64,000 nt of DNA from IMG/VR virus record IMGVR_UViG_3300046318_000374, positions 293 through 64,292 of that record; one strand, written 5' to 3'. Of this stretch, positions 9,928-54,576 are shown in pieces. How positions within the stretch are numbered: the first letter of the stretch is position 1; each line of letters begins with the position of its first letter. The notes under the pieces were generated by a model that ran no database searches, had not been told where the DNA came from, and saw only the letters and a program-made list of their open reading frames with translations. Both the position numbers and the translations under genes were made by a program. The DNA comes from a virus. Taxonomy: Duplodnaviria; Caudoviricetes.

Positions 9928-10308
9928 TGGTGGAGATGGCGGGATTCGAACCCGCGTCCAGATAAGTTTCTAATGTAAATCGTTCACAAGTTTAGGATAG
10001 TGTTTTATCTTACTAACACTCCAAAAGAATTGGGGCCGACTGGTTAAGTCAGCAGATTCCACCAACCGATTTAGAGTTTCGGTAAACTTAAAATTTTCAC
10101 TTCTTTTTAATTCCCACGAGTGATGCGGGAGCGATTAGGCAGCTACTGCGTAATCGAAAGACTCCATCCATGCCATAGCATCTCCGAAAGTCATTGTAGA
10201 TAATTCTACGTCTGCACTTATTGTTTGATAGGTCTTCAAAGGTTTCCATCTAACCTTACTTGCATCAATACAACCAGTCTTCATACCTGTCAAAAGCCGG
10301 TCATCCCC
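9928..10308 (-). ncRNA. ssrA: tmRNA (transfer-messenger RNA)
   Basis: 5' GGGGATGACCGGCTTTTGACAGG; 3' GACGCGGGTTCGAATCCCGCCATCTCCACCA with T-arm and encoded CCA; acceptor stem with G3:U alanine determinant; tag ORF 10215-10135 ADVELSTMTFGDAMAWMESFDYAVAA*. Confidence 0.95.
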
Positions 10309-37400: not shown

Positions 37401-40400
37401 GAAGAACCAGCAGTTCCCGTTGAACCAGATGTACCTGCCGTACCGCGTGTTCCAGAAGAACCAGATGTACCTCCACTACCAGATGTACCACTTGTACCAG
37501 AAGTACCAGCAGACCCCGTTGTTCCACTACTACCAGATGTTCCACTACTTCCGCTAGTTCCACTTGAGCCGGATGTTCCACTTGTTCCACTACTACCAGA
37601 TGTTCCGCTTGAACCAGTTGTACCACTTGAACCAGATGTTCCACTACTTCCAGATGTTCCGCTTGAGCCAGATGTACCACTACTTCCAGATGTTCCACTA
37701 CTTCCAGATGTTCCACTACTTCCAGATGTACCACTACTTCCGCTTGTTCCGCTTGAACCAGATGAGCCAGATGAACCGCTACTTCCACTACTTCCACTTG
37801 AACCAGAAGAACCGCTAGAACCAGTTGAACCACTACTTCCACTAGAGCCACTACTTCCACTACTTCCGCTTGAACCAGATGTTCCATCAATACCAGATGA
37901 ACCAGATGAACCAGATGAACCACTACTTCCGCTACTTCCACTTGAACCAGAAGAACCACTGCTTCCACTTGAACCAGAAGAACCAGAAGAACCATTTGTA
38001 CCAGATGTACCTGCTGCCTGCTGAACGTCTCTAGCTTCTAATTTTTTTGTTGTTTCATTCCAAACTACTACTAAATTTGAATTAGAGCCAGTGTTGAATG
38101 AATTAACATATATACTTCCACTTGCACCCAAACTACCACTAACTACAAAGTTTGCGTTAATTGTACTGTCTTGATTTGCTTGTACAAATGATGCAGTATC
38201 TACGTTTGTTGCGTTTAGTGCAAATTGTGCAACTGATGCAAATGATGATGAGTAAACATACATTGATGCAGTTTGCTCATTTTTAATAAATCCTTCCGCC
38301 GTTAATGCTCCACCTAATACATAAGATGCAGTTACGGCGTATGATGCTGATAATGCAAACGATGCAGTACCAACTGTCATTGAAGCAGTTTGTGAATTTT
38401 GTATAAAGTTTGCCGTATCTACATTGGCTGCATTAGCTGCAAACAATGCATACGATGATGATTCTGCAAAATACACACTCATCGAAGATGTTTGTGAATT
38501 AAGAACAAATTGACCTGTGTTAGCAGATGCAGATATTAATGCTTCTAATGAACCACTACTTAAACCCTGAACATTTGCTGCTACTTCTGCAAATCCTGCT
38601 CTTTCAGCATATGATGAAGAAAGTACAGTACCTATTACTCTATCACCCTGAATTGTTCCATTTATTAAAGAACCACCACTACCGATTACCGCGTGTCCAC
38701 TTGTTAAACCACTAAAGTTAATTTGGACAGTATCGTTATCAATTGCTAAAATTGATGCCGGTAGAATCATTTCTTCAGAGCCAGTTGCATAGACCTGAAC
38801 CATTGGATAACGAATATCCAAATTATGAACAATTGTTACCGAACTTACATTATTAAATGATACTGTCTCCGTTAAAGTAGTTTCTGGTTGAGGAATATAG
38901 TATCCTCTATTTTCATCCCATCTTAAAATATCGTATTCTACACTAGCAGTTGGTCCTCCACCTGTAAATGTGTAAGTACCATATAATGAACCACTTAAAT
39001 ATGGAGAGTATAGGAAACTAGCCGTTAATTCCGGCGTTACTAATCTATCAGTATATGTTGTACCATAAATACTTGCCGATGTATTAACTACAAACCCATT
39101 ATCAGGCGAAATTGATGCAGTAAATGAACCGGATTTTAATATTGGAGTTTCAAATGCTAAATTAGCAATGTTGATATTTGTTAAACCACTACCATCTCCC
39201 ACATAACGTGAACCAGATGCTGCAACTACATCACTACCAGTAATAAAGATACCGCCGGTAACATACAATGAACCAGTTATAGAAACATCCGTATCAACTT
39301 GCAACCCTTTGTTTGGTGAAATTACAGCAGTTACCGAACCAGAAGTAATTCTATCTAATTTAAGGTCTTGCAATGCTTCAGCAGGGATGTTAAACAAACC
39401 ACCACCATCACCAGAATAATATGCCGCCGTTACCGGTACATTTATAGTTAATAATTCAGGGTCAATTAACGCAACTGCAGAACCAGATTGAATTCTATCT
39501 ATTTCTAAATCTTGTAAAGCAGATGCTGGGATGTTAAATAATCCACCACCATCTCCTTTATATAGAGATGCAGTTATCGAACCGCTGAATGCAACTGAAC
39601 CACTAATAACTAAACTTAATGAAGATGTACTAACAGTTCCAGTTACAGTTATTGGTACATTTGATACAAATCCTAAATTTGGAGAAATAGAAGCAGTTGC
39701 ACTACCACTAGCAATACGAGGTGTATCACCAGAACGTTCTGCAATTACACCTGTCAATTGAGAACCATCTCCAAAATAAGTTATTGCCGTTACTGAACCA
39801 CTTACATTAACCGAACCTGTAAATTGTGAACCACTTTCGGGTGAAAATACAATAAGACCAGTTTCGGGCGATACGGAAGCAGTTACCGAACCACTAGCAA
39901 TACGAGGCGAATCGGCTGAACGTTCAGCGATTACACCGGTTAATTGAGAACCATCTCCATAATATGTAAATGCTCTTACCGAACCACTAACATTAACTGA
40001 ACCAGTGAATTGTGAACCACTTTCTAGTGATAAAACTACAAATCCGTTTTCCGGCGTTACCGAGGCAGTTACACTACCAGTTGCAATTAAATTAGCCGTT
40101 AATGCATCAGGAGTTAGGGCAGAACGAGGGATGTTAAATAATCCAGCACCACTACCACTAAAGAACGATGCAGTTGTTGCTAACTGAACAAGTCCATCTA
40201 CAAATATACTACCAGTAAATTGTGAACCACTTTCTAACGATATTACTCTGAACCCATCTTCAGGTGATACCGAAGCAGTTACACTACCCGTTGCAATTAA
40301 AGTTGCCGTTAATGCATCCGGAGTTAGAGCAGAACGAGGAATATTGAATAATCCCTCACCACTACCGGAGTAGAATGAACCAGATGATAATTGAACACCA

Positions 40401-43400
40401 CCACTTACAAATAAAGAACCTGTAAATTGTGAACCACTATCTAACGCCTCTACTTTGAAACCATATTCAGGACTTACCGAAGCAGTTATTGAACCACTAG
40501 CAATCTTAAACGCATCAGTTGATAGAGCAGATATTGGTATATCAAATAAATTAGCACCACTACCACTAAAACCAGATGCAGATACTGCTACATTAACAAC
40601 CATCCCAGCTTCAGGTGATATAGATGCCGAAGCAGAGCCTGAAATTATCTTTGAGGAATCAATTGCTAAATTAGCTAATGTAATATTGGTTAATTGAGAA
40701 CCATCTCCAACAAAATATGAACCAGTTGGTACATATAAGTTACCACTTACAATCGTTTCTCCAATAAATTCAATTTTTTGAGGTACTTCATATTGATTTA
40801 CAATATTGATTGTACCACCCATTGTTTGGTGTATTTGACAATTGTAATAAAGCGTATCAGGAGAACCACTAGGTGGTGTAAATGTGATAACACCAACATC
40901 ATCACCACCATTTGTTACACCATCACTATATACATTAGTTAATCCTGCACCATACACTGTCTTAAATAAGAATGGGTGCCCTGTTGCGTTTATGTTAAAT
41001 GTATAAGTTACTCCTCTTACTAATTTTAATGTTGGATTATCACCAACTATTGCACCATCAAATGTATATGCGGACATACCATTTGCAGTTACATCAAATG
41101 TAGTTAGTAAAGAACCAGTTGGTATTATTACAATTGAAGAAGAAACTGTCAATCCACCACTAATAAATGTATTAGTATTGATTTCCAATCCTCTATCCGG
41201 CGAAATTGATGCAGTTGCACTACCACTTGCTATTCTAAATGCTTCTTCCGATAATGCATTTAATGGAATATTAAATAAACCCTCTCCACTACCAGTAAAT
41301 GCAGATGCAGATACAGTATTTTGGAAATATGCAGGTACATTTGTTGTAAATCCACTAATTGGAGATACTGAAGCAGATGCCGAACCTGAAATTATTTGTG
41401 TAGAATCAATAGCTAAATTAGCTAATGAAATATTTCTTAATTTTGAACCATCTCCAACAAAGAATGAACCAGTTTCGGTGTAAATGTTACCATTTACTCT
41501 TAAACTACCAGTAAATTGTGAACCACTTATAGTAGATTCAACTCTAAATCCAAATTCTGGCGATACTGAAGCAGTTACTGAACCACTTACTATTCTAAAT
41601 GCCTCACTTGTTAAGGCAGATTGTGGGATATTAAATAAACCCTCACCAGAACCAGTAAACGCAGAAGCAGAAACCGTTGTATTAACTACTAATCCTCTAT
41701 CAGGTGATATTGAAGCAGTTGCCGAACCACTAGCAATTCTAAATGAATCACCAGAGATAGCAGATTGTGGAATATTGAATAATCCCTCACCAGAACCAGT
41801 AAATGCCGAAGCGGAAACTGTATTTGTGAAGTATGCGTCCACATTTACATTAAATCCTTCTACCGGAGAAATAGATGCAGTAGCAGAACCACTAGCAATC
41901 TTATTAATTTCAAAAGATAAAGCAGATTGTGGGATATTAAATAAACCCTCACCACTACCAGAGAAATAACCAGAGCCAGATGGTATAGTTGTTATACCAC
42001 TTATGTTAATACTACCAGTAAATTGTGAACCACTTACTAAAGATTCAACTCTAAACCCATTTTGTGGTGTTACCGAAGCAGTTACCGAACCAGATGTTAT
42101 TTGAGTACTAATTAATGCGTCTGGTGTTAGGGCAGTACGTGGTATATTAAATAATTTTTCACCAGAGCCACTAAAGAATGAACCAGAGTCAATAAATACA
42201 CTACCACTAATGGTTAAACTACCACTAATTGTTGCAAAAGTATTAACAACTAAACCAGTTGATGGTTCAATTGATGCAGTTGCACTACCACTTGCTATTA
42301 AAGTTGATGTTAATGATGGTATGTTTGTTAATCTACTACCATCACCCTGAAATGAACCACTAAATGAACCGCTAAACTCAATTGCAGTTATTGAACCACT
42401 TACTTCAATAGAACCTGTAAATTCTGAACCACTTTCTGATGATTCAACTCTAAATCCATATTCAGGGTTTACCGAAGCAGTTACCGAACCACTTGCTATG
42501 AAAGAACTAATTAAAGCATCTTGCGTTAAAGCAGTTCTAGGAATATTAAATAATCTTTCTCCACTACCACTAAATGATGAACCTGAAACTAATTCAATTC
42601 CACCACTTACAAATAAAGAACCAGTAAATTGTGAACCACTATCTATTGAAATTACTCTAAATCCATATTCAGGAGCAACTGATGCAGTAATACTACCACT
42701 TTTGATTTCAGTTGATATCAAAGCATCCTGCGTTAAGGCAGAACGAGGAATATCAAATAATTGTTGTCCACTACCACTAATGAACGAACCAGATGCCATA
42801 AAAATGCTTCCACTAAACGTAGAACCACTTGCAGTTGATTGAACTACAAATCCAAACTCATCAGTTACCGATGCAGTTACCGAACCACTAGCAATTAAAT
42901 TAGATAAAAGGGCATCTGGTGTTAAAGCAGAACGAGGAATATCAAATAAACCTCTACCGCTACCACTATATTGTGATGCCGATACCGAACCTTCAAAACT
43001 TGCCGAAGTATTAACTACTAAACCAAAATTAGGAGAAATAGATGCAGTTGCACTACCACTTGCAATTAAAGTACTAATTAATGCATCGGGAGTTAGAGCA
43101 GAACGTGGTATATCAAATAAATTTCTACCAGAACCACTAAATGATGAACCAGAATTGAGTAAAACACTACCACTTACACGTAAACTTCCACTTATTTCTG
43201 CAAAAGTATTAACAACTAAACCCCTATCAGGAGATATTGATGCAGTTGCACTACCACTAGCAATACGAGGAGCTACTGTTGATGGTACATTTAATAATTG
43301 TGAACCATCACCAACAAAAGAGCCAGTGAATGAACCACTTGCACTATTAACAATTAAAATATCTCTGATTTCAACCGAACCTGTGAATTCTTGTCTATCG

Positions 43401-43918
43401 GTTAATTCATCACCAAACTTATTAGAGCCAGATGAATAAATTACCGATGAAGAAACATATGATACGATTAGTTGTTCGGCAAATATAGATTGTGATACAT
43501 ATAAGTTACCCTGAACTGATGTATTACCCTGAATTACTGCGTTTGTATTTACAACCAAAGAAGTTCCATCAAACGATGCAGTTTGTGAACCACTTGCAAT
43601 AAATGGTGCTACAACCGATGGTACATTAATTAAACCACTACCATCTCCAAAGAAAGCACCACTAAATGAACCAGTTAAATCTGCAGTTCCTTTGAATGAT
43701 GATGTTATTGATGTTAATACTAATGTTTGAACAAACGCTCTATTACCCTCACTATCAGAAACTACAATTGCTGGATTTGTATCCAACGATGACGAGAATG
43801 TAGGAACACCCAAATTTGGTTCAACTTGGGATAAATCTACGAATTCATATCTGTCTGATGTTACATTTTTCGGTCCTTTTAATCGAACGCGTCCACTTAA
43901 TAGATTGCTTATTGCCAT
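34421..43918 (-). CDS. giant fibre protein (3165 aa): about 22 beta-rich repeats, cupredoxin domain, about 1000-aa Gly-X-Y tract, C-terminal knob
   Basis: Repeats G(S/D)G..L.NIP..AL...IASGS.TAS(I/V)SP; GHPF...LYYNCQIHQTMGG; long SSG/TSG tract; C-terminal TIDLS..N...ITWP..VRW.GG..P.LT.SGTDIL.F. Confidence 0.8.
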   Translation of the reverse strand: MAISNLLSGRVRLKGPKNVTSDRYEFVDLSQVEPNLGVPTFSSSLDTNPAIVVSDSEGNRAFVQTLVLTSITSSFKGTADLTGSFSGAFFGDGSGLINVPSVVAPFIASGSQTASFDGTSLVVNTNAVIQGNTSVQGNLYVSQSIFAEQLIVSYVSSSVIYSSGSNKFGDELTDRQEFTGSVEIRDILIVNSASGSFTGSFVGDGSQLLNVPSTVAPRIASGSATASISPDRGLVVNTFAEISGSLRVSGSVLLNSGSSFSGSGRNLFDIPRSALTPDALISTLIASGSATASISPNFGLVVNTSASFEGSVSASQYSGSGRGLFDIPRSALTPDALLSNLIASGSVTASVTDEFGFVVQSTASGSTFSGSIFMASGSFISGSGQQLFDIPRSALTQDALISTEIKSGSITASVAPEYGFRVISIDSGSQFTGSLFVSGGIELVSGSSFSGSGERLFNIPRTALTQDALISSFIASGSVTASVNPEYGFRVESSESGSEFTGSIEVSGSITAIEFSGSFSGSFQGDGSRLTNIPSLTSTLIASGSATASIEPSTGLVVNTFATISGSLTISGSVFIDSGSFFSGSGEKLFNIPRTALTPDALISTQITSGSVTASVTPQNGFRVESLVSGSQFTGSINISGITTIPSGSGYFSGSGEGLFNIPQSALSFEINKIASGSATASISPVEGFNVNVDAYFTNTVSASAFTGSGEGLFNIPQSAISGDSFRIASGSATASISPDRGLVVNTTVSASAFTGSGEGLFNIPQSALTSEAFRIVSGSVTASVSPEFGFRVESTISGSQFTGSLRVNGNIYTETGSFFVGDGSKLRNISLANLAIDSTQIISGSASASVSPISGFTTNVPAYFQNTVSASAFTGSGEGLFNIPLNALSEEAFRIASGSATASISPDRGLEINTNTFISGGLTVSSSIVIIPTGSLLTTFDVTANGMSAYTFDGAIVGDNPTLKLVRGVTYTFNINATGHPFLFKTVYGAGLTNVYSDGVTNGGDDVGVITFTPPSGSPDTLYYNCQIHQTMGGTINIVNQYEVPQKIEFIGETIVSGNLYVPTGSYFVGDGSQLTNITLANLAIDSSKIISGSASASISPEAGMVVNVAVSASGFSGSGANLFDIPISALSTDAFKIASGSITASVSPEYGFKVEALDSGSQFTGSLFVSGGVQLSSGSFYSGSGEGLFNIPRSALTPDALTATLIATGSVTASVSPEDGFRVISLESGSQFTGSIFVDGLVQLATTASFFSGSGAGLFNIPRSALTPDALTANLIATGSVTASVTPENGFVVLSLESGSQFTGSVNVSGSVRAFTYYGDGSQLTGVIAERSADSPRIASGSVTASVSPETGLIVFSPESGSQFTGSVNVSGSVTAITYFGDGSQLTGVIAERSGDTPRIASGSATASISPNLGFVSNVPITVTGTVSTSSLSLVISGSVAFSGSITASLYKGDGGGLFNIPASALQDLEIDRIQSGSAVALIDPELLTINVPVTAAYYSGDGGGLFNIPAEALQDLKLDRITSGSVTAVISPNKGLQVDTDVSITGSLYVTGGIFITGSDVVAASGSRYVGDGSGLTNINIANLAFETPILKSGSFTASISPDNGFVVNTSASIYGTTYTDRLVTPELTASFLYSPYLSGSLYGTYTFTGGGPTASVEYDILRWDENRGYYIPQPETTLTETVSFNNVSSVTIVHNLDIRYPMVQVYATGSEEMILPASILAIDNDTVQINFSGLTSGHAVIGSGGSLINGTIQGDRVIGTVLSSSYAERAGFAEVAANVQGLSSGSLEALISASANTGQFVLNSQTSSMSVYFAESSSYALFAANAANVDTANFIQNSQTASMTVGTASFALSASYAVTASYVLGGALTAEGFIKNEQTASMYVYSSSFASVAQFALNATNVDTASFVQANQDSTINANFVVSGSLGASGSIYVNSFNTGSNSNLVVVWNETTKKLEARDVQQAAGTSGTNGSSGSSGSSGSSGSSGSSGSSGSSGSSGSSGSSGIDGTSGSSGSSGSSGSSGSSGSTGSSGSSGSSGSSGSSGSSGSSGSSGTSGSSGTSGSSGTSGSSGTSGSSGTSGSSGTSGSSGTSGSSGTTGSSGTSGSSGTSGTSGSSGTSGSSGTSGSSGTTGSAGTSGTSGTSGSGGTSGSSGTRGTAGTSGSTGTAGSSGTSATSGSSGSSGSSGVDGSSGSSGTAGSSGSSGSSGSSGTTGSAGSAGSGGSAGTSGFDGTSGSSGSSGSNGSAGSAGSSGTSGEDGTSGTSGSNGTSGSSGSSGSSGTTGSSGTSGSSGSSGSSGSSGSSGSSGTTGSSGTTGSSGSSGSSGSSGSSGSSGSSGSSGSSGSSGTTGSEGTSGSSGSSGSSGTSGSSGSSGSSGSTGSSGTTGSEGTSGSSGSSGLDGSSGSSGSSGSSGSSGSSGSSGSSGSSGIDGSSGSSGTDGSTGTAGTSGTSGSSGSSGSSGTTGSDGTSGSSGSSGSSGSSGTSGSSGSSGSSGLDGTYFGSSGSSGSSGVSGTSGATGSSGTAGTPGTAGSSGVAGAAGTSGTSGQDGTYFGSSGTSGSSGSSGSSGSSGSSGSSGSSGSSGSSGVDGTSGIDGSSGSSGSSGSTGTDGTSGSSGSSGFDGTYFGSSGSSGSSGSSGSSGSSGTNGTSGSSGVDGTFFGSSGTSGSSGSSGSSGSSGSSGSSGSSGSSGLDGTYFGSSGTSGSSGSSGSSGSEGTSGTTGSSGSTGSSGSSGLDGTFFGSSGTAGSSGSSGSSGSTGTDGTSGTTGSSGSSGLDGTYFGSSGSSGSSGSSGEMGTSGSSGSTGTSGSSGLDGTFFGSSGTAGSSGSSGSSASNGTSGTSGSSGSSGLDGTYFGSSGSSGSSGSSGSSGSSGSTGTSGSSGSSGLDGTYFGSSGSSGSSGSSGSTGTSGSTGTDGTSGTTGSSGLDGTFFGSSGSSGTSGSSGSSGTSGIGTNGSSGSSGVDGTFFGTNGTNGTSGTTGSSGTSAGGTAGSGGTSGSSGSTGSAGTSGLLSLTGTTDNGIITLDGTAPNATVESNLTFDGTILTITGAVDASTYVTTTVFRETYSNLGSGTNVTIDLSTANNFRRQFTSSAAVTFTNPPAGKAFGFTLLIVNGGSGTITWPGTVRWAGGTGAPALTASGTDILVFYTYDGGTTYYGFVTGLNMA
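34890..38012 (-). repeat. about 3.1-kb Gly-X-Y Ser/Thr-rich coding repeat with about 12 DGT(Y/F)FG interruptions
   Basis: 9-nt periodicity; the translation is nearly pure GSS/GTS/GTT triplets. Confidence 0.92.
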
Positions 43919-43982: not shown

Positions 43983-44846
43983 TTATTCGTTTGCACTCTC
44001 TAATAAAGAAAGAACTACACTTAAATTTGGTGAGCCAGAAACTATAAAACCATAACTTTCTTCTAATACCAATTTACCAGAAACTACGGGTGATAATGAA
44101 TCAGCAGGTGGAATTAAAACATTTGTTACCAATTGTATTGGGTCTTGCGCAACTAATACCGGATTTTCAATCGTATCTAATACCACATTTGTAAACGCAT
44201 TAATTAAATAACCACTGCCACTACCGGCCGTAGCATATGTTGAATTAAGAGATTGTGATACTGCCGTTTGATATATTCTTTCAACGGAAGCAGAACCAGT
44301 TATTGATTCATTTTTAATAATTTGTTGTGCTAATGTGTTTGTATATTGAATTGCTAATAAAGATGCACTATATTCGGTTGGGTCAATAGTTGATACACCA
44401 TTTTTAGTATAAAAAGATTTTGCGTATTTGTTAGTTCGTATTGTTTTATTATTTTTTATATCATACGCATATGCATCAATAGCATCCAATGCAATATTCT
44501 CATATATAGATGATGTAAATGCAATTGGAGTTTCTAATAAATTATTTTGAAAGGAAGTATATGCCGCAACTTCCTTTCTAATAAATTGTCTATTCGCTGT
44601 TAATAGGATTGACGCACTATCAAAACTACCAGTAGATTCAATTGAACCAAATTGTGGTATTGCTAATTCTCTATTTGATGTTACAAATATTGTCACCGGT
44701 TGTGTTACTAAACTATTATTAGTAATTTGTGCCGAAAGTACAATAGATGATACACCTGCAGGAGTTGCATAAATTTCATCTTGCTCACCAGTCAATGTTG
44801 TTACCACCGACTGAAACCTATTAAGAGGTACGAATACACTTGCCAT
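43983..44846 (-). CDS. structural adaptor-like protein containing one Cys-less globin/phycobiliprotein-like repeat
   Basis: The ends resemble 32337-32669; the middle (LTANRQFIRKEV...DAIDAYAYDI...AIQYTNTLAQQII) resembles the repeats of the upstream giant protein. Confidence 0.65.
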   Translation of the reverse strand: MASVFVPLNRFQSVVTTLTGEQDEIYATPAGVSSIVLSAQITNNSLVTQPVTIFVTSNRELAIPQFGSIESTGSFDSASILLTANRQFIRKEVAAYTSFQNNLLETPIAFTSSIYENIALDAIDAYAYDIKNNKTIRTNKYAKSFYTKNGVSTIDPTEYSASLLAIQYTNTLAQQIIKNESITGSASVERIYQTAVSQSLNSTYATAGSGSGYLINAFTNVVLDTIENPVLVAQDPIQLVTNVLIPPADSLSPVVSGKLVLEESYGFIVSGSPNLSVVLSLLESANE

Positions 44847-44865: not shown

Positions 44866-47800
44866 TTATATTTGTAGTGCTAATGAGAACGGAGTTACTA
44901 ATGAGAACAATGATTTACTAAATGTTCTACCAACTAAAGTTCCAGTAGCTTGGTTGATACTTAATCCAGTACCAATTCTAAAGTCACCAGTTTCGTTACC
45001 AGATGTAAAGTAAATTCTACCTCCACCTAATTCCGTAATTTCATACGCAGGGTCCGCAGTTCCACTACCACCCTGATTAGAAGGCAGTGCCTTAAATGTT
45101 ACACCGGCTCCGTTATATGAGTAGTCAATACCAGTTGCCACAATTAAAGAACCAAATGATTCTAATGGTGCACCGGCTGCAACGAACTCAGCTCTTGTTC
45201 TTAAATATCTATTAGTTTCCAAAGTCTCTAATAGTTGGTCTCTTGTTACTGCAATTGCACTTCCATATTGACCATTGTAATAAGATGATGCCGCCGCTAT
45301 TCCTCTTTCGTTTCCACCATATAGTAAATCAGTTGCTACTGCATCAACAATCAAACCTGTATCACGAGAACAACTAGCCTCATTATATACTAAATATGGG
45401 AATGCTCCATTTGTGTATCCAATTGCTCTTTGTTTCAATTCATCTTTTGCTGCAATTAATCTATTGTATGCTGCTCTTCGTTTTGTGCCAGGGAACACCA
45501 TTTGTGTTTGGTTTACAATTTTTTCAGCCACACCTCTAGCAAAGTTAATTCCATCAACCGTTTGAATTTTTTGTCCAACAGTTCCATTGTCAGTATAAGA
45601 TGGTTTAATTGCTACTGATGGAATTTTATAGTAGTAAGAACCTGCCTCAATACTTCTTTCGTTTCCACCATACACTAAATCAGTTTTAACCGCATCTATA
45701 ATAAATCCTACATCACGAGAACAACTTACTTCGTTATATTGTAAAGTACTCCACGATGATGATAAGAATGCAATCGTTTCTTTTTGGATAAACAATCTAT
45801 TTCTTGTCAACAATTCTCTACCACCTAATGCAGAACCAGATGGTGATACAAAAGTTGGGTTAGTAATTACTTTGGTTGCTAACTTACCACCATATCTTAC
45901 ACCAGTAAGTGTTGGGTCTAATTGATTTGCTTCCGAAGGTACACCTGCTACCGTTGCTTTTGATGGGAATAGGTAATAATATGTGCCAGCAGTTACTGCT
46001 CTTTCAGTTCCACCATATAGTAAATCCGTTGCAGCCGCATCCGTTATATATCTTACATCACGAGAACAACTTGCCTCATTGTAGTAAACAGTACTCCAAG
46101 ATGAAGATACATATGCAATTACTTCTGCTGCTATGAAATCTTTATTTCTTCTTAATAAATCAAATGATGAAGAAACTTCTAATGATGCAGTATGGAACAC
46201 AATATTTTGTGCAATTTTTTGAGATATTCTACTTGCGTAATCAATACCCTCATTGGTTTGTTTTAATTGTCCTACGCTATCACCATCTCCCAATAAAGTT
46301 GCCTTTGATGGATATTTGTAATAGAATTCTCCACTTAAAACAGTTCTTTCGTTTCCACCATATAATAAATCAGTTGCTACACCATCAATAATGTATCCAA
46401 CATCTCTCTTACACTTATCTTTATTGTAAACAAAGAAACTCCATGCTGAATCTAACCAAGCCATTGTTTCGTTTTGGATAAATCCTCTATTGCTTCTTAA
46501 CAATTCAACTGATGCCGATACTGATTGAGATGCGGTTACAAATGTTTTGTTTGTAATTACATTTGCTGCCACACCACCTGCAAAATCAATTGCATTTAAT
46601 GTAGAATCTAATTGAGAGCCAGTTGCTTGTGATGGATACTTAAAGTAGTACTCACCGGCAGTTACACTTCTTTGATTTCCACCATAAAGAATATCAGTTG
46701 CCACCGCATCCACAATTAATCCAACATCTCTTCTACATTTAGATTCACTATATGCCAATGTACTCCAAGAAGAAGATACAAATGCAATTGTTTCCGCTTG
46801 AATGAATGGTTTGTTTTGTTTCAATGCATTGTAAACAGCAGATGCCGAAGCAGATGCAGTTACAAATGTTGTACCCAATACAATCTTTTGTGCCAATTGA
46901 GATGCGTAAATTATACCATCTAATGTTTCATCTAATTGAGAATCAGTTGCTTGTGATGGGTATAAATAATAATAATATCCATTATGAACTGATGCAGAGT
47001 TGCTATTCCAATATAAATCCTCTGCTGCACCACTTACAATTAAACCTACATCGCGAGAACAACTTGCCTCATTGTAAAGGAATGCAGTATCCGAATTAGA
47101 ACCAGTTACCCACGATGAACTAATGTATGCAATAGTTTCAGCCTGAATGAACGGAATGTTTGCTTTTAATAAGTTGTAAGCATTTATCACATTCGGGTCA
47201 GTTGATGGAGTTGTATATGGTATTGTTGCTGGTAATGAACCAGTACCATTTGTTACAATATCCGTAACTATACTAATTGATGCCGAAATTGCAGTTGCTT
47301 CAGTTTGTGTACCTGCACTTCCACTAATTTGTGGAGTGTTTGTTACTTTAATATTATTGTATGTGTTAGATACAAATTGTGGTGCACTAACTACATTACT
47401 TTGGATAATATTATCACTAAATCTTCTTGCGTAATCAATTGCCGTAGTTGTTTCAACTATTTGGTCACTTTCAATCGCCAACGATGGATATAGATAGTAG
47501 AACTCACCTGCTTTAGCTGCTCTTTGATTTCCACCATATAATAAATCAGTTGCAACCGCATCTACAATGTATCCAACATCTCTTCTACAAGATGTTTCAT
47601 TGTAGTATAGTTGTGGATATTTAGCATTTACAAATGCAACAGTTTCATTTTGGATAAATTCTTTATTACTTAATAATAAATCATAAGAATATTGAGTATT
47701 TGCATTTGGTGTTACAAATGTAGTGTTTTTTGCTACATTCATTGCCACACCTTTACCATATCTTATACCATCTAATGTTGGTTGTAATTGAGAATCAGTT

Positions 47801-50800
47801 GCCTGTGATGGGAATCTAAAATAGTAATCACCAGCAGTAAGACTTCTTTCATTTCCACCATATAATAAATCGGTTGCTACCGCATCTACAATATATGCAA
47901 TATCACGAGAACAACTTGCTTCGTTGTAATCAAATGTACTCCAAGAAGAACTTACATAAGCAATTACTTCGTTTTGGATAAATGGTTTATTTTTTATCAA
48001 CGATACATACGATGCCGAAGTTGATTGTGATGCTGATATATGAGCTAAAGTTGTATTTCTTACCACTCTTTCTGCCAATCCACTTGCGTATCTAATTGCA
48101 GTTAATGTTTGGTCTAATTGAGAACCAGTTGCTTCCGATGGGAAATCATAATAGTACTTACCATTTACATAAGAACCAGAATTACCACCATATAATAAAT
48201 CATAAGCAGCTCCATCGATAATGAATCCTAAATCTCTACTGCAACTTGCCTCATTGTAATCAAATGTACTCCAAGATGAACTTACAAATGCAATAGTTTC
48301 ATCTATAATCATTTGTTTGTTACCCAACAACAAATTGTATGCAGATACCATTTTAGTATTTGTATTTGCAGTTGCCGAAGAGGATATAAATGTAGTAGAA
48401 CCAGTTCCATTTGCTATAATATTAGCAACAATTGCAAATGATGCAGATACTAATGAAGCCTGAACTCTTCCTCCGGCACTTCCACTTATTAATTGTGGAG
48501 TATTTGTTACTTTAACACCATTTTGATTGTTTGATACTAATGTTGGATAAGTTCCCTCAATAATATCCATTACAATCTCAAATCCACTACCAATTTTTTG
48601 AATATCTGCTTCACTACCAGAAGATATTGATTGGAATAGTGTACCACCACTAATATTTAATGATGATGATGTATTTTCTATAATATTTGGTATAGAACCA
48701 GTTCCATTATTAACAATATCAATGATTGTTGCGTAAGAAGAACTTACTTTTGTTAAATCACTACCATTATATGTACCACTACCTGTAATTTGAGTTGTAG
48801 ATGTGATATGTAATAAAGTTGGAGTTGCTAATTGGAAACCATATTCAAAATTTCTTGCCAATGAATCCGGCGTACCATTCACACCAAAGTGAATAATATC
48901 TCTTACCAAACTAAACGATGAAGTTACCAAATCAGCATAAGTACTACCACCACTTATTGATGATGTAGTTGGTGTTTCATTTGTTACTTTTATTCCACTT
49001 TCAGTATTTTTAACAACTTCAGGTAAATATGATATACCATTTGATATAATTTCAGTTACCAATGCAAATGAAGAACTAATTTTAGTTAATTCAGTATTAC
49101 CAACACTTATCGATGATGTATATTGAGCAGTATTTGTTGCTTTTATATTATTATCCGTATTTTTACCAAAATTAACTGTATCTAATGTAATATTTGATAC
49201 CAATTTGTTCACTAAACTATTTGCATAATCTATTGAATCTATCGTTTGTCCTTTTTGTTCTACCGAAGTTGCCTTTGATGGGAATTTGTAATAATATACG
49301 CCAGATTCCACACTTCTTTCATTACCACCATAAACAATATCAGTTGCTACACTATCCACAATAAATCCAACATCTCTACTACAAGAAGCTTGGTTATATA
49401 CTAAATCAGGATAAAATGCGTTAGTATATTGAATAGTTTCTGCTTGAATAAATGCTCTATTTGCTTGTACTAAATTTCTTACATTTAATTTTTCTTTTGA
49501 AGCAGTTACAAATGTATTACCCAATATAATTTTTTGAGCCAAACCACTACCATACTTAATACCAGTGATTGTTGGGTCTAATTGTTGAGTAACCGATGGT
49601 ACTCCACCAACAGTTGCAGCAGATGGATATAAATAATAGAATAATCCGGCAGTAGATGTTCTTTCATTACCACCATAAACCAAATCCGTTCTTACCGCAT
49701 CAAGTATATACTTTACATCTCTTTCACATTTTGCTTGATTGTATGAAACACCATACCAAGACGATGATACATACTCAACAACTTCTCTTGCTATTAAATC
49801 TTTATTTAATGATAATAAATTACTAGCATTTGTTTTATTTTGTGAAGCAGTTACAAAAGTAGTACCAACAACAATTTTTTGTGTCATTCTACCTGCGTAA
49901 TCAATACCATCTATTGTTTGTACTAATTGAGAACCAGTTGCCTGCGATGGATATAGGTAATAGAATGTTCCAGCTGCCACAGCTCTTTCATTCCCACCAT
50001 AAACTAAATCGGTTCTTACTGCATCAATAACGTGTCCAATATCTCTCTTACACTTAACATCATCGTAATCAAAATTACCCCACGAAGATGATAAGTAAGT
50101 AATAGTTTCACTTTGAATAAATTCTCTATTGTTCTTTAATTGTAAAGAAGCATTTTGTACTTGTTCGTTTGGATAAGTGTAAACTATATTTTGTAAAGTT
50201 TTTTGTGCTAATTTACTAGCATACTTTATACCATCCACAGTTTGATTTAATTGAGAACCAGTTGCTGCTGATGGATATTCTAAATAGTACTTACCACTTA
50301 CTAACGAAGCAGAATATGAATTAAATAATAAATCTTCTGCTGCACCACTTACAATTAAACCAATATCTCTACTACAACTTGCTTCATTATATTCAAACCC
50401 ATTCCAAGATGAAGATAGGTAAGCAATAGTTTCCGCCTGAATAAACGGAATATTTTGTTTTAACAAATTATATGCATAATATACAACCGATGCAGTTTGC
50501 GCAGTTGTATATGATGATGTTGGTAAACTTAAAGATGCGGTCACACCACTATTTCCACTTAAAATATCAACAACTAACGATATAGATGCGGATATTGCAG
50601 ATGCCTGTGTGGAAGAACCACTATAAGATGCCGAAACATATTGTGGTGTATTTGATACTTTGATATTTTGTAATGTGTTTAGGGTAATTGTAGGAACTAC
50701 ACCTAAACCATTTTTAATAATATTTTTAATTGTTTCAACCGATGAACTAACCGCAGTTGCCTGTGTTTGAGTTGCATTACTACCAGTCCATTGACTTAAA

Positions 50801-53800
50801 TTTGTAACTTTAATATTTTGTAAAGTGTTTGATTGGTATGTTGGTATTGAACCTGTTCCATTTAGTACAATATTTACAATCGTACCAATAGAAGAACTAA
50901 TTGCATTAGCTTCCGTTTGAGATGCAGATGCCGCACTAACTAAATTTAATCCACTTACAACAATTAAATCTCCGTGTGATGAAGTTATAGCAGGTTTTGC
51001 AGAACTACCACTTTCTATAATTTTAGTAATTATATCAAATTTAGTATCAATTGATGATGTTAAATTAGCAGATGATGTTACTGATGTTATTTGAGTACCA
51101 TTGGTAATATTTAATGGATTTCTAGTATTCCAATCTTGCCCATTTTGTTGTGCTACAATTGAATTTAATACACCGGTTCCTCTTTTAATAATTTTTTCAA
51201 CAATATTGAATGAACTACTAATTGAACTAATTTCTGCTGCAGTACCTGAAATAGATGATGTTACATTTGTTAATGCAGTTACTTTAATATTTTTTTCATC
51301 ATTACCAATAATACGTGGAGTATCTAACAATATGTTTTGTACTACATAATCACCAATAATTTTTGTATATTGTATTGCACCAGATGTTTCTTTCTTTTGT
51401 GTAGAAGTTGCAATTGATGGGTAATAATAATAATTTCTACCAGCAGTTACACTTCTTTCGTTTCCACCATACAATAAATCCGTTGCAATTGCATCTACAA
51501 TATATCCAACATCTCTTCTACATTTTGTAGTACTATATTTTAATTGAGGATATGCAACATTAATAAATTGAATTGTTTCATTTTGAATTAATTCTTTGTT
51601 TGCTCTCAATAAATCATAAGCTGCTTGTGTGGATGAAGAAGCAGTTACAAATGTTGTGTTTGTGATTAAATTACCAACAACACCTTTTGCATATCGAATA
51701 CCAGTTAAAGTTTGTTCTAACTGATTTGTAGATGATGGAACACCACCAACAACAGCTGCCGATGGGTATAGGTAATAAAATTGACCAGCAATTGTACTTC
51801 TTTCATTTCCACCATATTTCAAATCAGTTGAAACTGCATCTAAAATATGTCCAATATCTCTTTTACATTTAACCTCATCATAATAGAAACCATCACCACC
51901 ACTCCAAGAAGAAGAAATAAATGCAATAGTTTCATTTTGTACAAAACTTCTATTATCAATTATAGATTGCCAAACTGCATCTATTTCAGTTGATGGATAA
52001 TTAAAGGTTACATTTTTTACAACTTTTTCAGCCATTCCAGCTGCATATTTTACAGCAGTTAAAGTTGGTGTTAATTCAGTTGTAATTGCGTTTGATGGGT
52101 ATAAGTAATAGTACAAACCACTTCTAATAGATTCTTCATTACCACCATATAACAAGTCTTTTGCTACACCATCTATGATGTATCCAATATCTCTTTTACA
52201 AGTTGTTTGATTATATGAAAACGCACTCCACGATGATGATAAGAATGCAATGGTTTCCTCCTGAATAAATTCTTTATTATTTACCAATTGGTCATATGCG
52301 TTTATCACATCCACATTTTGACTTGGATTTGATGAACTATAAAAAGTGTCCGGATATGTAATTGTACTAGCAATTAATTCTCTAGGAGTATCGTTTGAGT
52401 TTACAATATGAAACTCACCAATCATATCCTCACTATTTTGAGCTACATAATATAATTTATTTGGTGCATCGTATGGAACTTCAAATGTTATATTACCAAC
52501 ACTATCTCCATTATTCACTACACCAAAATCATAATCATATGAATCAGTTATTCCGCTAATTGGTGATTTTCTAATGAAGAATGGATAGTTGTTTGGACCA
52601 GCTGCTTCGGATGCGGAAACATAGAACTTATACTCTTCACCTCTAAACAAAGTAATTGTAGGATTACCACTAACTCCATCAAATGAATAAGATGAACTAC
52701 CATTATTTGTTATAGTATATGCTCTTTTATGATTAGTAGGAATATCTTCAAACGCACTACCAGTACCATTTGCTAATATATTATATACAATACTAAAACT
52801 GGCACTTATTGCGCTTACAGTAGATAACGATGATGAAATACCGGTTGTAAATTGTGGTGTATCGGTTACTTTTATACTTGCACTATTATTTGATACAATT
52901 GTAGGTGCTACACTTAATCCATTTGTTACAATATTAATTATATTATCAAATGATGCACTTACACTACCAGTTGTAATATCACCAGCAGGATATGCAGATG
53001 GTTCTATTGTAATATCAGTTACTTTTATTGCATCTTCAGTATTTGATTTGAAAACATATGAACCAGTACCATTTGAGAATATACTTAATATAGTTCCAAA
53101 TGATTGACTGATATGTGTTAAATCACTTAATGATGCCGAATCAATTGATGATGTAATTTGAGTTGCACCTAAAATATTATATGGCGAATCAAACCCATAT
53201 CCTTTGTTTGAACTTTTAGCTAAAAGAGTTGGAAAATTACCAATTCCGTTTTCAACAATTGCACTAACTAAATTAAAATCTGCAACTACTTGCGCAGTTG
53301 TTTCGGTAGTTGGTGTTAAGGCAGATTCACTACCTGATAAGTATCGTTGTAATTCACTAGTTACTTTAATTCCTTCGGCAGTATTTAGAGTTGTAATTGT
53401 AGGTAATCCATCCTCTAATCCTTTATTAAGAACATCTACAACACAACTCCAACTTGCTCTTACTTTATCACGTGCATCAATATTACCACCCTGACTACTA
53501 CTAATAAAGCGAGAACCAGATGCATACATACCATATAAACCAAACGAAATATTTGAGTTGTTTAGTGTAGCATGTCCACCATTGTTTACTCTAATTGCAT
53601 AGTATGAGAAGTTATTAAAGAAAGATACCAACTGAATGAATCCTCTACCATTTACCAAACATCCCACACCATTAGGAGAAATTTGTGTATAAGCATCCAA
53701 TACCATAGATGCCAATGGTGAATCAGGATGAACCGCATCTCCGTTTACATACAATCCACCACCCCCCGGTGGAATCTCTTCGTAGAGTTCAGTAAATGAG

Positions 53801-54576
53801 TTCTCTTGGTTTGAAATTTGTGAGCAGTTCTGAACATATGGCGAGGTTGTAATAAACGCTCCTGGTTGAAAAGCTACACCAAAACCTTTTTCAGGATTTA
53901 TTTGGTCTGGATATAATCTCAATCCACCCATTGTAATTTCAGCGATATAACAACCACTATTTACCCAAAATAAATCCTCCCCTTTGTTCTTTGCATTAAT
54001 TTTTGTAATACGCAGACCAGACCCCCAAATTGTAGAGTTTTTTGGAAGTATTACAGGATTATCTTCATAGTATGTACCTGCTTGCACTCTAATTACATAA
54101 CCACTATAACTTGATTTAGGGTCTAACCCATATCTACCATCATATCCCGGTGTTGCTAATTGAGCTGCTCTTTTTACTGTTCTTAAAGGGTATTGAATTG
54201 AACGTCCATCGTTATTATCATCACCATCGGTAGAAGATACATAAAGGGTTGGGACGTTAGCACCAAAATCTTTTGAACGAATACCATCATATAATACCGT
54301 ATCGCTTGCTAACAATGCATTTGATGCAGTTGCAGATAATTGAGTTAATCTTGTAAGATTTAATTCACCATCAAATGTTAAAGAACCAGTAAGAAAAACG
54401 GAACCTGTAATTTCACCTCTATCAGTTAATTCATTACCTAAAAAGAAATCATTATCTACCTGTAAAGAACCACTCAATAAGGAACTTCCGGTAACAATTA
54501 AATCTCCACCAATTCGCAATGAGCCGGATATATCCTGTTGTTCTTCAATTTGTTTACGCGGTATTAATCTTGCCAT
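44866..54576 (-). CDS. giant structural protein (3236 aa): pectin-lyase-like beta-helix with 16 inserted phycobiliprotein/globin-like CxRD repeats
   Basis: LYVS..GDDNNDG.S...P.RTVKRA and SPYVQNC beta-helix N-terminus; 16 x N..FIQ.E.....CxRD.G.I.D....DL.YGGN; C-terminal GGRIYFTS...GDFRIG.GL.INQATG. Confidence 0.8.
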   Translation of the reverse strand: MARLIPRKQIEEQQDISGSLRIGGDLIVTGSSLLSGSLQVDNDFFLGNELTDRGEITGSVFLTGSLTFDGELNLTRLTQLSATASNALLASDTVLYDGIRSKDFGANVPTLYVSSTDGDDNNDGRSIQYPLRTVKRAAQLATPGYDGRYGLDPKSSYSGYVIRVQAGTYYEDNPVILPKNSTIWGSGLRITKINAKNKGEDLFWVNSGCYIAEITMGGLRLYPDQINPEKGFGVAFQPGAFITTSPYVQNCSQISNQENSFTELYEEIPPGGGGLYVNGDAVHPDSPLASMVLDAYTQISPNGVGCLVNGRGFIQLVSFFNNFSYYAIRVNNGGHATLNNSNISFGLYGMYASGSRFISSSQGGNIDARDKVRASWSCVVDVLNKGLEDGLPTITTLNTAEGIKVTSELQRYLSGSESALTPTTETTAQVVADFNLVSAIVENGIGNFPTLLAKSSNKGYGFDSPYNILGATQITSSIDSASLSDLTHISQSFGTILSIFSNGTGSYVFKSNTEDAIKVTDITIEPSAYPAGDITTGSVSASFDNIINIVTNGLSVAPTIVSNNSASIKVTDTPQFTTGISSSLSTVSAISASFSIVYNILANGTGSAFEDIPTNHKRAYTITNNGSSSYSFDGVSGNPTITLFRGEEYKFYVSASEAAGPNNYPFFIRKSPISGITDSYDYDFGVVNNGDSVGNITFEVPYDAPNKLYYVAQNSEDMIGEFHIVNSNDTPRELIASTITYPDTFYSSSNPSQNVDVINAYDQLVNNKEFIQEETIAFLSSSWSAFSYNQTTCKRDIGYIIDGVAKDLLYGGNEESIRSGLYYYLYPSNAITTELTPTLTAVKYAAGMAEKVVKNVTFNYPSTEIDAVWQSIIDNRSFVQNETIAFISSSWSGGDGFYYDEVKCKRDIGHILDAVSTDLKYGGNERSTIAGQFYYLYPSAAVVGGVPSSTNQLEQTLTGIRYAKGVVGNLITNTTFVTASSSTQAAYDLLRANKELIQNETIQFINVAYPQLKYSTTKCRRDVGYIVDAIATDLLYGGNERSVTAGRNYYYYPSIATSTQKKETSGAIQYTKIIGDYVVQNILLDTPRIIGNDEKNIKVTALTNVTSSISGTAAEISSISSSFNIVEKIIKRGTGVLNSIVAQQNGQDWNTRNPLNITNGTQITSVTSSANLTSSIDTKFDIITKIIESGSSAKPAITSSHGDLIVVSGLNLVSAASASQTEANAISSSIGTIVNIVLNGTGSIPTYQSNTLQNIKVTNLSQWTGSNATQTQATAVSSSVETIKNIIKNGLGVVPTITLNTLQNIKVSNTPQYVSASYSGSSTQASAISASISLVVDILSGNSGVTASLSLPTSSYTTAQTASVVYYAYNLLKQNIPFIQAETIAYLSSSWNGFEYNEASCSRDIGLIVSGAAEDLLFNSYSASLVSGKYYLEYPSAATGSQLNQTVDGIKYASKLAQKTLQNIVYTYPNEQVQNASLQLKNNREFIQSETITYLSSSWGNFDYDDVKCKRDIGHVIDAVRTDLVYGGNERAVAAGTFYYLYPSQATGSQLVQTIDGIDYAGRMTQKIVVGTTFVTASQNKTNASNLLSLNKDLIAREVVEYVSSSWYGVSYNQAKCERDVKYILDAVRTDLVYGGNERTSTAGLFYYLYPSAATVGGVPSVTQQLDPTITGIKYGSGLAQKIILGNTFVTASKEKLNVRNLVQANRAFIQAETIQYTNAFYPDLVYNQASCSRDVGFIVDSVATDIVYGGNERSVESGVYYYKFPSKATSVEQKGQTIDSIDYANSLVNKLVSNITLDTVNFGKNTDNNIKATNTAQYTSSISVGNTELTKISSSFALVTEIISNGISYLPEVVKNTESGIKVTNETPTTSSISGGSTYADLVTSSFSLVRDIIHFGVNGTPDSLARNFEYGFQLATPTLLHITSTTQITGSGTYNGSDLTKVSSSYATIIDIVNNGTGSIPNIIENTSSSLNISGGTLFQSISSGSEADIQKIGSGFEIVMDIIEGTYPTLVSNNQNGVKVTNTPQLISGSAGGRVQASLVSASFAIVANIIANGTGSTTFISSSATANTNTKMVSAYNLLLGNKQMIIDETIAFVSSSWSTFDYNEASCSRDLGFIIDGAAYDLLYGGNSGSYVNGKYYYDFPSEATGSQLDQTLTAIRYASGLAERVVRNTTLAHISASQSTSASYVSLIKNKPFIQNEVIAYVSSSWSTFDYNEASCSRDIAYIVDAVATDLLYGGNERSLTAGDYYFRFPSQATDSQLQPTLDGIRYGKGVAMNVAKNTTFVTPNANTQYSYDLLLSNKEFIQNETVAFVNAKYPQLYYNETSCRRDVGYIVDAVATDLLYGGNQRAAKAGEFYYLYPSLAIESDQIVETTTAIDYARRFSDNIIQSNVVSAPQFVSNTYNNIKVTNTPQISGSAGTQTEATAISASISIVTDIVTNGTGSLPATIPYTTPSTDPNVINAYNLLKANIPFIQAETIAYISSSWVTGSNSDTAFLYNEASCSRDVGLIVSGAAEDLYWNSNSASVHNGYYYYLYPSQATDSQLDETLDGIIYASQLAQKIVLGTTFVTASASASAVYNALKQNKPFIQAETIAFVSSSWSTLAYSESKCRRDVGLIVDAVATDILYGGNQRSVTAGEYYFKYPSQATGSQLDSTLNAIDFAGGVAANVITNKTFVTASQSVSASVELLRSNRGFIQNETMAWLDSAWSFFVYNKDKCKRDVGYIIDGVATDLLYGGNERTVLSGEFYYKYPSKATLLGDGDSVGQLKQTNEGIDYASRISQKIAQNIVFHTASLEVSSSFDLLRRNKDFIAAEVIAYVSSSWSTVYYNEASCSRDVRYITDAAATDLLYGGTERAVTAGTYYYLFPSKATVAGVPSEANQLDPTLTGVRYGGKLATKVITNPTFVSPSGSALGGRELLTRNRLFIQKETIAFLSSSWSTLQYNEVSCSRDVGFIIDAVKTDLVYGGNERSIEAGSYYYKIPSVAIKPSYTDNGTVGQKIQTVDGINFARGVAEKIVNQTQMVFPGTKRRAAYNRLIAAKDELKQRAIGYTNGAFPYLVYNEASCSRDTGLIVDAVATDLLYGGNERGIAAASSYYNGQYGSAIAVTRDQLLETLETNRYLRTRAEFVAAGAPLESFGSLIVATGIDYSYNGAGVTFKALPSNQGGSGTADPAYEITELGGGRIYFTSGNETGDFRIGTGLSINQATGTLVGRTFSKSLFSLVTPFSLALQI

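Follow-up and report, generated by a model that had tools for sequence, protein, structure and literature searches.

A 64,000-nucleotide stretch of phage DNA (Duplodnaviria; Caudoviricetes), positions 293 to 64,292 of the IMG/VR record IMGVR_UViG_3300046318_000374 and hereafter called the window, encodes on its minus strand a giant, putative virion fiber-type protein of 3236 aa (P0001; 44866..54576). We found that this protein contains 16 copies of a domain that represents a new branch of the bilin-binding globins, truncated and multiplied in tandem, with the bilin-attachment site intact in all 16. The same superfamily holds the phycobiliproteins, the globins associated with bilin biosynthesis (BBAGs), and the photoglobins. 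Globins of the phycobiliprotein type are known from cells, as antenna or bilin-binding proteins, and not as components of virus particles. In the literature covered, subscription journals being outside that coverage, we found no paper on phage structural proteins with phycobiliprotein-like domains or bilin-binding globin domains. The window is nearly the whole of the 64,292-base record, for which completeness is estimated at 32%.

The long genes of the window all lie on the minus strand and form a myovirus-type structural module, with a major head protein, head-tail adaptor, sheath, tube, baseplate parts, and three giant proteins. P0001 combines a location in this module, between the head and neck genes and the genes for a collagen-like fiber, sheath, and tube, with a tail-fiber family match at E about 1e-137; the families are phrog_4527 (E 5.3e-138) and phrog_5342 (E 4.9e-137), labeled in PHROG as tail fiber, short tail fiber, or virion structural protein. 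The annotations of its cyanophage homologs disagree, naming a tail fiber, a short tail fiber, or a baseplate wedge.

Sixteen repeats with a conserved C-x-R-D site

A first-pass annotation of the window, made by a model from the sequence alone, had counted 16 phycobiliprotein-like repeats in P0001, each with a C-x-R-D motif. A script found exactly 16 C.RD motifs in the translation, and all four variants named earlier (CKRD, CRRD, CSRD, and CERD) are present. The codons of the 16 motif cysteines run from window position 52200 down to 45372, within the interval 45170-52310 given by that annotation, and the peptide that it quoted as an example is repeat 3. P0001 has 20 cysteines in all, and with 20 cysteines in 3236 residues the occurrence of 16 C.RD motifs by chance is out of the question. 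The other four, at positions 209, 251, 306, and 378, all precede residue 380 and sit in the N-terminal part, so that no repeat contains a second cysteine, as had been stated for the repeat cores. The unit is about 110 aa long, and the copies are grouped in four blocks of 3, 4, 3, and 6, with repeats of a second type, about 50 aa long, between them. When the 16 copies were cut as 112-aa units and aligned (alignment A2), the mean column identity was 52% and eight columns were invariant: Y32, C37, R39, D40, D51, Y67, S72, and T82. The motif is therefore kept in every copy, as had been proposed, though other features of the repeat are invariant too.

Conservation after duplication is the meaningful test of the C.RD motif, and it holds in 150 other proteins as well. 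A profile search of 1.84 billion representative sequences returned 1321 proteins at E≤0.001, of which 969 reached E≤1e-10; the 150 proteins listed are mostly longer than 1000 aa (the shortest has about 500 aa) and carry up to 36 copies each. Among the 1605 repeats in these 150 best other proteins, the cysteine is conserved in 95%, the arginine in 95%, the aspartate in 98%, D51 in 99%, Y67 in 98%, and T83 in 91%. Frequent loss of the cysteine in homologous repeats had been named as an outcome that would speak against a bilin site, and such loss is rare. We also analyzed how the motif residues are lost. In the 1571 copies that have residues at all three motif positions, C, R, and D are kept together in 1457, all three are lost in 27, and C and R are lost in 20. 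The odds ratios for joint loss were 61 for C and R, 894 for C and D, 78 for C and Y67, and 9.6 for C and D51, D51 being retained in 77 of the 80 copies without the cysteine. Because the copies are not independent events, P values for joint loss are overstated. The contrast between these residues and D51 argues, on the pattern of conservation, that C, R, D, and Y67 form a single functional site.

The repeat family extends to T4-like cyanophages. A tblastn search with aa 2076-3144 of P0001 against 50,697 phage records matched 109 of them, all at less than 60% identity; 108 are named Synechococcus, Cyanophage, or Prochlorococcus and the remaining one "Marine". Megablast found nothing in the phage collection that matched the giant gene. 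The giant cyanophage proteins S-PM2p091 and S-RSM4_214 (PHROGs 4527, 5342, and 701) belong to the same repeat family and contain five and at least six KC[KR]RD-type sites, respectively, in the same sequence context. The window protein differs from these cyanophage homologs in having more copies, which are also more uniform, with 16 of 16 sites intact. Copy number varies among close relatives of the window phage too: the ortholog in the relative G020 has 22 repeats, and two further relatives, G002 and G004, gave 25 and 23 profile hits, each total including one hit in a separate small downstream open reading frame (ORF). These differences suggest that the arrays expand and contract quickly.

Predicted fold and relationship to phycobiliproteins

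To describe the fold of the unit, we used an AlphaFold model of repeat 9 (aa 2186-2297) computed from an alignment of the 16 paralogous repeats. The model (pLDDT 78.7, pTM 0.71) has five helices, with the cysteine at the start of the third. In a two-repeat model of units 9 and 10 (pLDDT 69.6), each unit matched globins separately. When repeat 9 was compared with 48,161 representative chains using VIA-align, bilin-binding globins took nine of the top 11 places. The best match was the photocobilin 8j2y_B (Z 11.6, rmsd 2.5 Å, 96 residues), followed by allophycocyanin 8or7_A (Z 10.9) and ApcE 4xxi_A (Z 10.2); two colicins reached Z 8.7-9.1, and heme-binding globin sensors and RsbR reached Z 7.5-8. 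The photocobilin globin domain (8j2y, 8j2w) was also the top match of the two-repeat model (Z 10.3). Of 274 Foldseek candidates that were aligned, 100 reached Z≥8, and the 50 listed were without exception phycobiliproteins or their fluorescent-protein derivatives. Model residues 1-104 overlie phycobiliprotein residues 37-150. Across the bilin-binding globins, a globin-like core of helices B, E, F, and G was superimposed in the predicted model at Z 10-11.6, with an rmsd of 2.2-3.2 Å over 96-103 residues, a range below the caution line of about 13 that the tool sets for helical bundles; for the phycobiliproteins alone (phycocyanin, allophycocyanin, phycoerythrin, and ApcE), the values were Z 10-10.9 over 97-103 residues with the same rmsd. 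The phycobiliprotein-like fold anticipated from the letters alone thus emerged from the model, with bilin-binding globins as its top matches. As modeled, each unit retains Cys-x-Arg-Asp and the helices (A)B-E-F-G, which in phycobiliproteins surround the pocket of the Cys84 bilin; the helix names, including X, Y, and H, follow the literature.

Because Z scores below about 13 may reflect a common helical-bundle arrangement, we sought evidence in the sequence. A broad repeat profile was built from 1091 copies taken from the 150 best library matches and P0001 (163 sequences after filtering) and was aligned by hhalign with a reference (A3) of 11 phycobiliprotein genes from one marine Synechococcus genome. 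The two profiles aligned with Prob 93.3 and P 2.7e-7 over 93 columns, covering profile positions 34-140 of 155, at an overall identity of about 16%. In this register, C37, R39, and D40 fall on the invariant C, R, and D of the bilin-attachment CXRD, at the start of helix E, GG falls on GG 18-19 residues downstream, and the invariant tyrosine falls on a conserved phycobiliprotein tyrosine. Reversing the query or the template lowered the score to 10.5-11.8, and none of 30 column permutations scored above 15.5, whereas masking the four motif columns on both sides left the register unchanged, with a score of 24.0 and P 0.0012. The structure and sequence alignments give one register, with model residue 1 corresponding to phycobiliprotein residue 37 or so, and we regard homology as well supported. 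The earlier assignment of the cysteine, arginine, and aspartate to the bilin-attachment CXRD, with GG downstream, is borne out by the profile-profile alignment. It had further been claimed that the unit reproduces both the order and the spacing of these elements; the order is as in phycobiliproteins, but the loop between helices B and E is about nine residues shorter, and helices X, Y, and H are missing.

Several results weigh against the reading of the repeats as bilin-binding globins. The 16 repeats of P0001 by themselves aligned with the phycobiliprotein reference at a Prob of only 20 (E 0.0011), cysteine on cysteine. No match to PF00502 was obtained for the whole protein (E≤1), for any of the 16 repeats (E≤10), or in a six-frame search of the record, and the curated threshold of this family is not reached in the G020 ortholog either (12.2 bits, cut-off 22.2). 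More generally, Pfam searches of the whole protein, of each repeat, and of four sub-regions gave nothing usable; a phmmer search of P0001 against Protein Data Bank (PDB) sequences gave chance-level rows only, and the 16-repeat profile gave none at E≤10. Both structural models rest on P0001's own paralogous repeats alone (12-16 rows). Foldseek found nothing at E≤0.001 in the PDB or in BFVD; its top PDB rows were phycocyanins and phycoerythrins, but at E about 1, and its BFVD matches went to cyanophage tail proteins; the ranking of these rows was informative, the E values were not. Finally, the X-Y hairpin and helix H, on which the assembly of phycobiliprotein alpha and beta subunits is based, are absent from the one- and two-unit models alike, the alignments spanning phycobiliprotein residues 30-150 or thereabouts.

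Some of these results would fit convergence, in which a common five-helix bundle happens to bear C-x-R-D in the absence of common descent. In addition to the Foldseek E values of about 1 and the unmatched PF00502, the Z scores of colicin domains (8.7-9.1) point in that direction, as do lookalikes found with a protein language model in the ESM Atlas. The latter were Gp6-like helical-domain clusters at a similarity of 0.77, under the 0.9 line; the corresponding family, PF21379, was absent from the Pfam scan of the repeats, and we treat this as no more than a weak lead. Against convergence stand the profile-profile P value of 2.7e-7 over 93 columns, the persistence of the register after masking and the lower scores of the reversed and permuted controls, the agreement of structure and sequence on that register, and a sub-threshold PF00502 match that lies inside the orthologous ORF of G020. 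We regard convergence as very improbable and hold with high confidence that the repeats are homologs of phycobiliproteins.

Bilin-synthesis genes in related genomes

The first-pass annotation reported no gene for bilin synthesis or for a bilin lyase in the window, and this held for the whole record: neither a heme oxygenase nor a bilin reductase was found in it, the record being 32% complete. We therefore turn to its relatives, of which two sets were assembled. The first comprised 17 IMG/VR records found through the capsid protein. Two of the 17 contain the repeat, namely G002 (100% complete) and G004 (41% complete), and G002, but not G004, encodes a heme oxygenase and a ferredoxin-dependent bilin reductase in adjacent genes. 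The second set consisted of 13 larger repeat-bearing records, none of which contains psbA. Both bilin genes are present in four of the 13, including all three that are at least 90% complete (G019, G020, and G021).

The closest complete relative is G020 (274 kb, 100% complete), with a capsid protein 85% identical to that of the window; the corresponding figure for G002 is 77%. The G020 ortholog of the giant gene (L214) starts with the same residues, is collinear with P0001 at 54-61% identity, has the same neighbors on both sides, and carries CxRD in 22 of its 22 repeats. The heme oxygenase of G020 (187 aa; PF01126, 56.5 bits) adjoins the reductase gene, which encodes a 209-aa protein (PF05996, 80.7 bits) whose best match is PcyA, with a score (97 bits) that stays under the equivalog cut-off. 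Some 116 kb separate this cassette from the giant gene. No small globin or lyase gene was found beside the cassette in G020 or G002, and in six records the sole PF00502-like signal (12.2 bits) falls inside the giant ORF. The repeat is a candidate phage-encoded acceptor with an intact site, found in cassette-bearing genomes that hold no other phycobiliprotein-like sequence.

Taken together, all four near-complete (at least 90%) repeat-bearing genomes, G002, G019, G020, and G021, encode heme oxygenase and bilin reductase. Neither gene was found in any of five complete relatives that lack the repeat, that is, G007, Flavobacterium phage immuto, Microcystis phage Mel-JY01, Rhodothermus phage RM378, and an uncultured 484-kb phage. 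The contrast of four of four with none of five gives a Fisher P of 1/126, for genomes that are few and partly interrelated, G020 and G002 both being of the capsid lineage of the window.

The surroundings of the cassette differ between the two complete relatives. In G002 (C1:242482-246033), it is flanked by a thymidylate-synthase-like ORF and a GroES/GroEL-like pair, as identified by eye, and in G020 it adjoins an AdoMet decarboxylase-like gene and a sugar epimerase gene. In the cyanophage S-RSM4, a CpeT-like bilin lyase gene (2444-2968) is located about 1 kb upstream of the giant repeat gene SRSM4_214 (3922 onward), with only transfer RNA (tRNA) genes and an HNH gene between them.

A possible pigment on the fiber

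Considering the conservation of the site together with the oxygenase-reductase cassette in every near-complete repeat-bearing relative, we lean toward the view that the fiber repeats carry bilin. A phage-encoded heme oxygenase and a PcyA-like reductase would make bilin from host heme during infection; in the window phage, the two genes would be expected to lie in the two thirds of its genome that the record lacks. The assembled fiber could then bear up to 16 chromophores per chain. The pigment might make the fiber responsive to light or shield it from light, which is the most speculative step of this scheme.

A second group of observations speaks against a pigmented fiber. In addition to the small and partly interrelated sample behind the co-occurrence, no CpeT or CpeS lyase gene was found in the four relatives searched, two of them complete. 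In a reverse test that started from relatives of the reductase (12 loci), the repeat was found in none of the nine reductase-bearing records searched, all of them fragments of 18-79% completeness. The cyanophage P-SSM2, which is described as carrying the bilin reductase genes pebS and pcyA (PMC2984593), has no repeat by a six-frame search with the broad profile, in which the positive control S-PM2p091 scored 250 bits. P-SSM2 and the reductase-bearing records without the repeat imply that phage bilin genes do not serve the repeat alone. Within the repeat family, the cysteine is less strictly conserved than D51 and Y67, and 5% of the repeats, as well as a degenerate copy in the downstream gene P0152, do without it.

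Such observations would be accounted for if the repeats descended from a bilin-binding globin and now served, free of pigment, as rigid helical beads that lengthen the fiber, with C-x-R-D, D51, and Y67 holding the bundle together through helix capping and a buried salt bridge. The unit is truncated, with no X, Y, or H helix, up to 36 copies occur per protein in fiber-type proteins, and D51 (99%) and Y67 (98%) exceed the cysteine (95%) in conservation. The persistence of a Cys-less copy in P0152 and its orthologs, the lack of a lyase gene in the four relatives searched, and the ability of P-SSM2 to make bilins without having the repeat are consistent with beads as well. However, exactly the three residues that contact the chromophore in phycobiliproteins survive at 95-98% against an overall identity of about 16%, and C, R, and D are lost jointly while D51 stays. 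The near-complete repeat-bearing genomes, moreover, all encode the oxygenase and the reductase and offer no other candidate acceptor. We consider pigment-free beads a real possibility, and one less probable than a fiber that carries bilin.

The absence of lyase genes and of psbA from the relatives searched sets the phage units apart from the phycobiliproteins, as do scores below the PF00502 threshold, the shorter loop, and the missing hairpin and helix. Phycobiliproteins are alpha and beta antenna subunits, whereas the phage units are 16 tandem copies in a single 3236-aa chain encoded in a structural module. A second known system to which they can be compared is that of the BBAGs (Rockwell, Martin and Lagarias 2023, PMC10151467). 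The accessible part of that article presents CXRD as the bilin-attachment motif of phycobiliproteins and describes BBAG-1 as well as BBAG-3 proteins of non-photosynthetic bacteria that carry CXRD and bind bilins without lyases. Like the phage repeats, BBAGs are described as distant phycobiliprotein paralogs outside the cyanobacterial antennae. They are linked to heme oxygenase and a PcyA-type reductase; for the phage repeats, a link of this kind would be one at the genome level, seen in complete relatives and not in the nine reductase-bearing fragments. They differ in being, by the same account, single-domain cellular proteins encoded beside the bilin genes; the phage domains are multiplied in a predicted virion protein, and in G020 some 116 kb separate them from the cassette. 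The likeness to BBAGs is drawn from their published description and not from sequence.

Non-covalent binding was also considered, with the pocket holding biliverdin or heme, or a tetrapyrrole from the host surface or the environment, and the repeats acting in adsorption or scavenging instead of bearing a built-in pigment. The best structural match of the unit is the biliverdin-binding globin domain of photocobilins, heme-binding globin sensors match it too, and BBAG-2 proteins are reported to be specific for biliverdin (PMC10151467). Photocobilins, however, are cellular photoreceptors in which the globin is fused to a B12-binding domain, and photoglobins are described as having CXQD (PMC10151467) where the phage units have CXRD. 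A cysteine kept in 95% of the repeats would be needless for a non-covalent site, and the presence of a reductase besides the oxygenase in the relatives points beyond biliverdin. We judge non-covalent binding to be improbable.

Light-dependent adsorption

Adsorption of the cyanophage S-PM2 is reportedly light-dependent, a finding attributed by another paper to Jia et al. 2010. Light-dependent adsorption is described for P-HM2 and P-HM1, whereas P-SSM2 and P-SSP7 are described as adsorbing in the dark, and a light-sensitive tail-fiber component has been proposed to underlie the dependence (PMC6628666, accessible part). We searched these phages with the repeat profile (A2) and obtained five hits in P-HM2, five in P-HM1, nine in S-PM2, and none in P-SSM2 or P-SSP7. 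Since only five phages are compared, two of them of one species, this match is a lead and no more. The repeat is a concrete candidate for the proposed component.

The furthest extension of the scheme would be a pigmented particle bearing up to 16 covalent bilins per chain, supplied by phage enzymes, in which light would gate adsorption through the array, the latter serving as a photoreceptor of the virion. We regard this as doubtful, and a light-sensing role of the repeats as speculative. If true, the photoreceptor reading would explain why adsorption of some cyanophages is confined to the light and why phages encode bilin synthesis, including those that lack photosynthesis genes. What phages of heterotrophs use heme oxygenase and bilin reductase genes for is described as still enigmatic (PMC11480375), and the purpose of such genes is called unclear for Prochlorococcus phages in the accessible part of another article (PMC2984593). 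Since the family is large (1321 cluster representatives), the answer would bear on many aquatic phages.

Organization of the giant gene and of the window

The N-terminal part of P0001 (aa 1-756; 52309..54576, minus strand, as for all features below) contains no phycobiliprotein-like repeat; it holds the four other cysteines and the first of the approximately 50-aa "IKVT" repeats. No Pfam family matched aa 1-420 at E≤5, and aa 400-760 gave one chance-level match only. Repeat block 1 (units 1-3, aa 757-1094; 51295..52308) has its motif cysteines at positions 793, 904, and 1019 and is followed by a spacer of the 50-aa type (aa 1095-1364; 50485..51294), with the pattern "IKVT...ISSSF..V..II.NGTG" and nothing better than chance in Pfam. 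Block 2 (units 4-7, aa 1365-1807; 49156..50484; Cys 1401, 1509, 1617, and 1732) precedes a second spacer of the IKVT type (aa 1808-2075; 48352..49155), and block 3 (units 8-10, aa 2076-2405; 47362..48351; Cys 2112, 2222, and 2330) precedes a short one with a single IKVT unit (aa 2406-2469; 47170..47361). Block 4, the largest (units 11-16, aa 2470-3144; 45145..47169), has cysteines 2506, 2614, 2722, 2837, 2952, and 3069. The protein ends in a tail (aa 3145-3236; 44869..45144) that matches no Pfam family and is shared with the C-terminus of phrog_3442, the best stretch aligning residues 3142-3234 with profile positions 3875-3965 of 3967. The second repeat type ("IKVT...ISSSF.IV..II.NGTG..P"), for which no Pfam match was found, occurs at aa 400-620, 1095-1364, 1808-2075, and 2406-2469.

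Downstream of the giant gene lies P0152, which encodes a 287-aa protein (43983..44846). Its residues 78-183 (window 44298-44615) constitute a 17th, degenerate copy of the domain, in which I-Y-E-N replaces C-x-R-D and no cysteine is present; hmmsearch with the 1091-copy profile scored it at 31.8 bits (E 7e-12). A degenerate copy of this type was matched at the same position in G002 and G004, and the G020 ortholog of P0152 is 65% identical.

The promoters of the window had been taken to indicate a Bacteroidota host, a proposal that our counts do not uphold. The Bacteroidota -7 promoter motif TAnnTTTG occurs 114 times, compared with 94.9 ± 9.5 in shuffled sequences, and four of 100 shuffles reached 114, so that the motif is at most weakly enriched. 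By capsid protein, the nearest cultured relatives are one phage of Flavobacterium and one of Microcystis, each about 52% identical. In this, and in the absence of psbA, CpeT, and CpeS from its complete relatives, the window phage differs from a typical cyanomyovirus.

The two further giant proteins of the structural module, of 3165 aa (34421-43918) and 2669 aa (24309-32318), contain collagen-like tail-fiber repeats (PHROGs 5073, 6320, and 1806). A rise in GC content to 0.41-0.48 at 34-38 kb coincides with the 3165-aa gene, and a smaller one (0.43) at 30-32 kb lies inside the 2669-aa gene. The window also encodes a full-length transfer-messenger RNA (tmRNA) at 9928-10308, with the tag peptide ADVELSTMTFGDAMAWMESFDYAVAA predicted by ARAGORN; the RNA scored 97.1 bits against Rfam RF00023 (gathering score 47).

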